From sequence record PZ019086.1: 64,000 bases of DNA. One strand, written 5' to 3'. Of the stretch, positions 40,723-41,538 are shown piece by piece. Positions within the stretch are counted from its first letter, which is position 1; each line of letters opens with the position of its first letter. The translations under genes were made by a program, and so were the position numbers. A model generated the notes under the pieces. The model was not told the DNA's origin, made no database searches, and saw only the letters and a list, made by a program, of their open reading frames with translations. The stretch is from a phage.

Positions 40723-41010
40723 TTACAAAAGATTTTTAGCAATAATCTTGAGATGTGCCGCAGAAATGTGTTTAGCTTTAAACAACGCAGTTTCTTCAGC
40801 AGGAGAGATAATGATTGTAGCACCATCCTTTTTAGCAGACCACCCATCGCCTAGGTAAACAGTACCTTTGATTTCTTCGCCATCAACCAGACTAATCATT
40901 GGTTTACCTTCTCGTCCTTTATTTGCTTTAATAACTTCAGAAGTAAGAGTAGCTTCGGTAATGGTAGAAACCGGGGTAGTTGTAGAAGTAAATTCTTTAA
41001 ATGTTTTCAT
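40723..41010 (-). CDS. ipI: Internal protein I precursor (IPI; the mature IPI* is an injected anti-restriction protein in T4)
   Basis: 95 aa; body ATLTSEVIKANKGREGKPMISLVDGEEIKGTVYLGDGWSAKKDG... matches my recollection of T4 IPI; leader MKTFKEFTS... is a variant capsid-targeting sequence. Confidence 0.8.
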   Translation of the reverse strand: MKTFKEFTSTTTPVSTITEATLTSEVIKANKGREGKPMISLVDGEEIKGTVYLGDGWSAKKDGATIIISPAEETALFKAKHISAAHLKIIAKNLL

Positions 41011-41034
41011 TTTATTTTCCTAATTAATTTTGAT

Positions 41035-41085
41035 GAGATAATAGTATCACTACCTCATCAGCGTGTAAACAACTTTGTGAAATTA
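41035..41085 (-). promoter_or_regulatory. T4-type early promoter
   Basis: gatgagataatagtatcac...tgtaaacaactttgtgaaattatttt. Confidence 0.5.
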
Positions 41086-41538
41086 TTTTAAATCGTCTGC
41101 CCAATCGAGTTTAAGAGGCTCTTTGTATTCACGATCTAATACGACCGGAATTTGTACATCACCGCTAAATGATAAGGGCCCAACATTATAAGACAATGTT
41201 ATATGCGGCGTGTAATCATCAAAATCATGTGTAGCACCTAGTGCCCGCGCATACATGTGTCGACAGCGCAGATATTCAGAATCTAGCACAAGTACAAGAG
41301 TCGATCCATCTTGTGTTTTCCATACTTCTAAATGTCCAGAAGAAGCTACTTCAAAACTTCCGCTTGATGGAACATACGGAACATTTACCCTTGAATAACA
41401 TATGGTCGAATGAATTTTTTCTCTAGGAACTGGATTAGGAACACGTAAAGAGCGCTGGAGTTCTTCCAGCGCATCAAGTGTTAATTCTGAAAACTTAGCT
41501 GCTACATAAAGACCCGTTGAAAAGTCTTTAAATTCCAT
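41083..41538 (-). CDS. 57B: 2H-phosphoesterase family protein at the T4 57B position (Acb1-like anti-CBASS cyclic-nucleotide phosphodiesterase)
   Basis: 151 aa; two H-x-T motifs (HSTICY, HITLSY); immediately upstream of 57A. Confidence 0.75.

Follow-up and report, generated by a model that had tools for sequence, protein, structure and literature searches.

Near-identical copies of the T4 genes ipI, 57B (acb1) and vs.4 (acb2) in a genome segment of a T4-like phage

Three small proteins of phage T4 serve as references for the locus described here. IPI*, the mature form of internal protein I, is injected into the host and inhibits the GmrSD enzyme of E. coli CT596 (PMC3012670, PMC12373910). Such inhibitors are narrow in range: Ip1, Ip2 and Ip3 each block one GmrSD variant only, and a different one in each case (PMC12373910). 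Acb1, the product of T4 gene 57B, was purified by activity and degrades cGAMP, cUA and cAAA; its catalytic tetrad has been described as H44/T46/H113/T115, an H44A/H113A mutant is inactive and deletion of acb1 from T4 has been validated (PMC9117128). Published work on the T4 protein identifies it as a metal-independent 2H phosphodiesterase. Acb2, the product of T4 vs.4, is a hexameric sponge that binds three cGAMP molecules per hexamer (Kd about 30 nM), and its homologues have been treated as PHROG 717 (PMC10097602). With respect to early expression, the relevant described elements are the PeSL (promoter-early stem-loop) cassettes, for which a PST/T4 consensus of TTTACW-N17-TAYWAT has been published (Arbiol et al. 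2010, PMC2839356; Comeau et al. 2014, PMC4122927).

The DNA analysed here, referred to below as the window, is a stretch of 64,000 nucleotides from a phage sequence record (PZ019086.1). DNA searches place it as a segment of a Tequatrovirus (T4-like) genome, with 95-99% identity to hundreds of records of T4-like E. coli and Shigella phages, some of which use the labels "anti-CBASS protein Acb1", "anti-CBASS protein 2" and "internal protein I". The order of genes on the minus strand (gene 3, gene 1 [dNMP kinase], 57A, 57B, ipI, trna.4, trna.3, trna.2 and the tRNA cluster) is that of T4, and the DNA spanning 57A, 57B and ipI is 99% identical to it. Similarly, the genes near position 30000 (regB, vs.3, vs.4, vs.5 and vs.6) are syntenic with T4, and the DNA of vs.5 and vs.4 is 98% identical. 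Judging from these comparisons and from those of the proteins below, it is nearly certain that three counter-defence genes characterised by experiment in T4, namely ipI, acb1 and acb2, are present in the window in near-identical form. All three proteins are already known, and these are new copies of characterised T4 proteins in the T4 gene order. The initial annotation had proposed a comparison with reference sequences of Acb1, Acb2 and IPI, and had named low identity as the result that would speak against it. Identity to the T4 references is 99% for IPI, 100% for 57B/Acb1 and 100% for Vs.4/Acb2; low identity was therefore not what was found. The genes of interest, with the parts of their products that are discussed below, are as follows.

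30000..30266, minus strand: vs.4 (acb2), cyclic-nucleotide sponge, 88 aa (T4 identity; PDB 7UQ2; Pfam PF24729; phrog_717)
40723..41010, minus strand: ipI, internal protein I precursor, 95 aa (ORF; Pfam PF11634 IPI_T4; phrog_4363, internal virion protein)
40954..41010, minus strand: N-terminal leader of IPI (capsid-targeting/propeptide), residues 1-19, MKTFKEFTSTTTPVSTITE, identical to the T4 leader
40726..40953, minus strand: mature IPI* (76 aa), predicted GmrSD inhibitor, 75/76 identical to PDB 2JUB chain A
41083..41538, minus strand: 57B (acb1), anti-CBASS 2H phosphodiesterase, 151 aa (ORF; T4 identity; Pfam PF23474; PDB 7T26)
41404..41412, minus strand: first HxT motif of 57B, H43-S44-T45 (H44/T46 in T4 numbering), from the translation
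41197..41205, minus strand: second HxT motif of 57B, H112-I113-T114 (H113/T115 in T4 numbering), from the translation
41538..41780, minus strand: 57A, tail-fibre chaperone (Pfam GP57, E-value: 5e-51)

The surroundings of ipI and 57B show several departures from the T4 reference. Gene 1 (41780..42493, minus strand) encodes a dNMP kinase of 237 aa, compared with 241 aa in T4, with 96% identity and a 4-residue alignment gap. The tRNA cluster (38346..39177, minus strand) consists of 10 genes (Gln, Leu, Gly, Pro, Ser, Thr, Met(CAT), Tyr, Asn and Arg) where T4 has 8; tRNA-Tyr and tRNA-Asn stand in place of the T4 homing endonuclease gene segB, which is absent, and the tRNA with the CAT anticodon occupies a position annotated as tRNA-Ile in T4. 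Between the cluster and trna.2 lies a 171-aa ORF (39266..39781, minus strand; phrog_2290, unknown function) that has no counterpart at the same position in the T4 reference and is present in phage vB_EcoM_P8. The homologue of trna.3 (40079..40459, minus strand) is only 55% identical to that of T4, while the adjoining trna.4 is 100% identical. An Rfam scan of positions 37800-42700 returned the 10 tRNAs only; the ipI/57B region gave no structured RNA. Plus-strand ORFs of 30-61 aa that overlap ipI and 57B were dismissed as mechanical and without support.

The IPI precursor matches its T4 equivalent (NP_049749.1) in length and at 94/95 residues, the sole change being V67I in the mature body (residue 48 of the mature protein), and it matches Pfam PF11634 with an E-value of 2e-53 (bit score 178.7, gathering cutoff 25). 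In both phages, the gene occupies the slot between 57B and trna.4. The chain in PDB 2JUB, which is the 76-aa mature IPI*, begins at residue 20 (A20), directly past I-T-E at residues 17-19. The leader ends in a site of the prohead-protease type, and from the T4 literature we would expect the precursor to be packaged and cleaved by the prohead protease. IPI had initially been described as a T4 IPI body with a variant targeting leader. The T4 body stands, but the variant leader had to be dropped: MKTFKEFTSTTTPVSTITE agrees with the T4 IPI leader residue for residue (19/19). It does differ from the shorter, 10-residue leader of the MKTYQEFIAE type found in IPII and IPIII, and this contrast probably lies behind the misreading. 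Homologues of IPI were found in 291 phage records (the wider region is matched in about 800) and form bands at 95-100% and 80-90% identity.

Further internal-protein genes are located elsewhere in the window. Between vs.8 and the lysozyme gene e (31893..33475, minus strand), there are four consecutive genes with capsid-targeting leaders of the form MK[TM]Y.EF[IL][AS]E, from which the IPI leader differs. One of these genes is an orthologue of ipIII (96% identity to T4), and the remaining three are small internal-protein genes of 104, 86 and 93 aa (phrog_3966, 2667 and 3499, respectively). T4 ipII is absent. A tblastn search for denV, which is found at this place in T4, gave no match anywhere in the 64-kb window.

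The 57B protein is identical to T4 Acb1 (NP_049750.1) at 151/151 positions over T4 residues 2-152 and, as in T4, its gene is located downstream of 57A. Its annotation begins one residue later, as the codon that is an upstream ATG in T4 reads ATA in the window; the missing first methionine is probably a difference at the level of annotation only. T4 57A stops with TGA, whereas 57A of the window stops with a TAA that overlaps the acb1 start codon (TAATG), so that 57A and 57B overlap. The match to Pfam PF23474 (Acb1) covers profile positions 1-144 of 144 (E-value: 2.6e-60; bit score 202.7, gathering cutoff 27). Acb1 of Erwinia phage FBB1 (PDB 7T26/7T27) serves as the structural representative, and 57B aligns across the whole FBB1 chain of 7T26 (E-value: 4e-62). 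This full-length alignment, together with 100% identity to T4, points to a 2H phosphoesterase fold with a C-terminal lid. The initial annotation had noted two H-x-T motifs typical of 2H phosphoesterases, and exactly two are present in the 151-aa product (HST at residues 43-45 and HIT at 112-114), corresponding to the T4 tetrad with an offset of one residue. Orthologues of 57B are named "RNA ligase" in RefSeq and in phrog_755; the names "anti-CBASS protein Acb1" and "cyclic phosphodiesterase" appear in only a few recent records.

The Vs.4 protein is likewise identical to that of T4 (88/88 residues with NP_049728) and shares the neighbours vs.3 and vs.5 with it; about a dozen nucleotide changes distinguish the two coding sequences, all of which are silent. 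It matches the crystallised T4 Vs.4 (PDB 7UQ2, E-value: 1.7e-57), Pfam PF24729 (Acb2/Tad1 hairpin; E-value: 7e-20, bit score 71.4, gathering cutoff 27) and phrog_717 (E-value: 2e-32). In the translation, the cGAMP-contact residues (Y8, H11, K23, R79 and F82) and the hexamer-interface residues (L29, A66, A73 and A77) listed in PMC10097602 are all present, as the sequence is identical to that of T4. An Acb2-position gene had been reported at 30000-30302, and while the gene itself was confirmed, its start was not. The TTG at position 30302 was rejected as a mechanical extension: the ATG at 30266 has a ribosome binding site (GAGGAA) and matches the start of both T4 Vs.4 and the crystallised protein.

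The adjacent gene vs.5 (30259..30480, minus strand) is an intact ORF of 73 aa with an end-to-end match to phrog_1986 (E-value: 6e-43), and its stop codon overlaps the start of vs.4/acb2 (ATGATTGA). In the T4 reference, a 1-nt deletion in vs.5 results in a frameshifted 58-aa product with its tail in another frame; mutation or a sequencing error probably accounts for this form of the reference gene. Studies of T4 would for this reason have missed vs.5. From the overlap of the two genes, it could be speculated that intact vs.5 encodes an uncharacterised partner of Acb2 or an extra counter-defence factor acting with it, though we consider this very improbable.

On either side of ipI there are copies of a 54-nt direct repeat (D1) that are 78% identical to each other and that match the published PeSL cassettes of T4-like phages in anatomy.

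41030..41083, minus strand: upstream PeSL-type cassette, after the 57B stop and ahead of the ipI start (promoter scan, repeats D1 and I10, hairpin)
40664..40717, minus strand: downstream PeSL-type cassette, after the ipI stop and ahead of the trna.4 start (promoter scan, repeats D1 and I6, hairpin)

A promoter scan identified an early-promoter-like sequence, TTTACA-N17-TACTAT with TG, before ipI (41041..41070, minus strand) and an equivalent site past it (40675..40704, minus strand). Both repeats fit the published consensus and, as in PeSL cassettes, a hairpin lies between or over the promoter boxes and is followed by a Shine-Dalgarno sequence and a start codon. The upstream hairpin (inverted repeat I10) has a predicted stability of -14.8 kcal/mol (z -3.3) and the downstream hairpin (inverted repeat I6) of -16.9 kcal/mol (z -3.7). 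A scan for consensus intrinsic terminators around ipI and 57B found none, and the reading of the intergenic hairpins as terminators was set aside, as these hairpins are parts of the PeSL-type repeats. Immediately upstream of ipI, no late promoter (TATAAATA) is present; the nearest such motif upstream on the minus strand lies inside gene 1 (42136..42143). In the window as a whole, the early-promoter-like pattern GTTTACA-N14-TGnTAnnAT occurs at 13 sites, compared with 0.21 expected by shuffling. These sites span positions 8628 to 41070, all on the minus strand, and mark the direction of early transcription across the hyperplastic region.

The exchange of genes in the ipI slot follows these same repeats. 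In relatives, 57B and trna.4 are retained with about 95% identity, and a different internal-protein gene lies between them. For example, phage RB68 has ip5 in the slot, with a downstream repeat copy identical to that of the window, and the leader of its Ip5 is similarly long and also ends in ITE. In G9062, the slot is filled by two ip genes, and the repeat is present in three copies. Identity with these relatives breaks exactly at the boundaries between repeat and start codon, a form of replacement at the flanking repeats that is shared with PeSL cassettes. Taken together, these comparisons indicate that ipI stands on its own as a cassette enclosed by two PeSL-type promoter/stem-loop repeats. 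The swapping of ip genes in this slot is an already described phenomenon, and the relatives behave as the PeSL model predicts.

Three other readings of ipI and 57B were weighed against this evidence. The arrangement of the two genes, which are adjacent on the same strand and only 72 nt apart, would be compatible with a co-regulated anti-defence operon directed at one host system, and the initial annotation had called IPI and 57B an anti-defence pair. As a statement of adjacency this holds; as a statement of function it does not. ipI has a separate early-promoter-like element, which contains a stable hairpin and lies between the two genes, relatives hold 57B at about 95% identity while ipI gives way to ip5 or to two ip genes, and the published targets differ (CBASS signals for Acb1 versus GmrSD restriction for IPI). 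A true operon of this kind is therefore very doubtful. We conclude that ipI and acb1 are adjacent yet independent, and that they form a "pair" in position only, because the defence systems that they act on differ and each gene would be expressed separately. The naming of 57B raises a different alternative, that it is an RNA ligase or a generic LigT-like 2',5' RNA ligase rather than an anti-CBASS nuclease. RefSeq applies this name to T4 57B itself as well as to many orthologues, phrog_755 is described in the same way and Acb1 and LigT enzymes have the 2H fold in common. However, the curated Pfam family for 57B is Acb1, and the identical T4 protein has the published cyclic nucleotide-degrading activity, inactive H44A/H113A mutant and validated deletion cited above (PMC9117128). 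The name "RNA ligase" is a legacy, fold-based annotation, and the likelihood that it describes the function of this protein is exceedingly small; 57B is best regarded as Acb1.

The remaining alternative concerns IPI, which might be a functional variant whose leader or V67I substitution alters packaging or shifts its specificity to a different GmrSD. The restriction of Ip1, Ip2 and Ip3 to single GmrSD variants (PMC12373910) would be in keeping with this idea, as would diversification of the IPI family, which is evident because homologues fall into the two identity bands given above. The identity of the leader to that of T4 is difficult to reconcile with it, however, V67I affects one position only and is conservative, and the exact 95-aa sequence is found again, at 100% identity, in other deposited phages. 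We regard a functional variant as very improbable. A shift in GmrSD specificity through V67I could be envisaged, but it is a weaker possibility than an involvement of vs.5 with Acb2, and IPI of the window is best read as T4 IPI.

The biochemical activities of IPI, Acb1 and Acb2 can be predicted from the literature on the T4 proteins. The product of ipI would be made as a 95-aa precursor, with the 19-residue leader directing it into the prohead and being removed after I-T-E. The resulting 76-aa IPI* would be injected with the DNA and would block a type IV restriction enzyme of the GmrSD type that cuts DNA containing glucosyl-hmC. The 2H phosphodiesterase encoded by 57B/acb1 would use its two HxT motifs to hydrolyse CBASS cyclic oligonucleotides (3'3'-cGAMP as well as cUA and cAAA), as a result of which the abortive-infection effector would stay inactive. 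The 88-aa protein encoded by vs.4/acb2, about 10.8 kb away, would form hexamers that sequester cGAMP. These expected roles are in agreement with the functions given in the initial annotation, which had T4 57B (Acb1) degrading cyclic signals and Vs.4 (Acb2) sequestering them; the published functions (PMC9117128, PMC10097602) apply here.

Beyond correct annotation, these findings matter little. They also show that the name "RNA ligase", which databases widely attach to 57B, is out of date. The phage carries the canonical anti-CBASS pair, consisting of the Acb1 nuclease and the Acb2 sponge, in addition to the anti-restriction protein IPI. Knowledge of this complement helps to predict host range against E. 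coli strains that carry CBASS or GmrSD, for example in the choice of phages for therapy.
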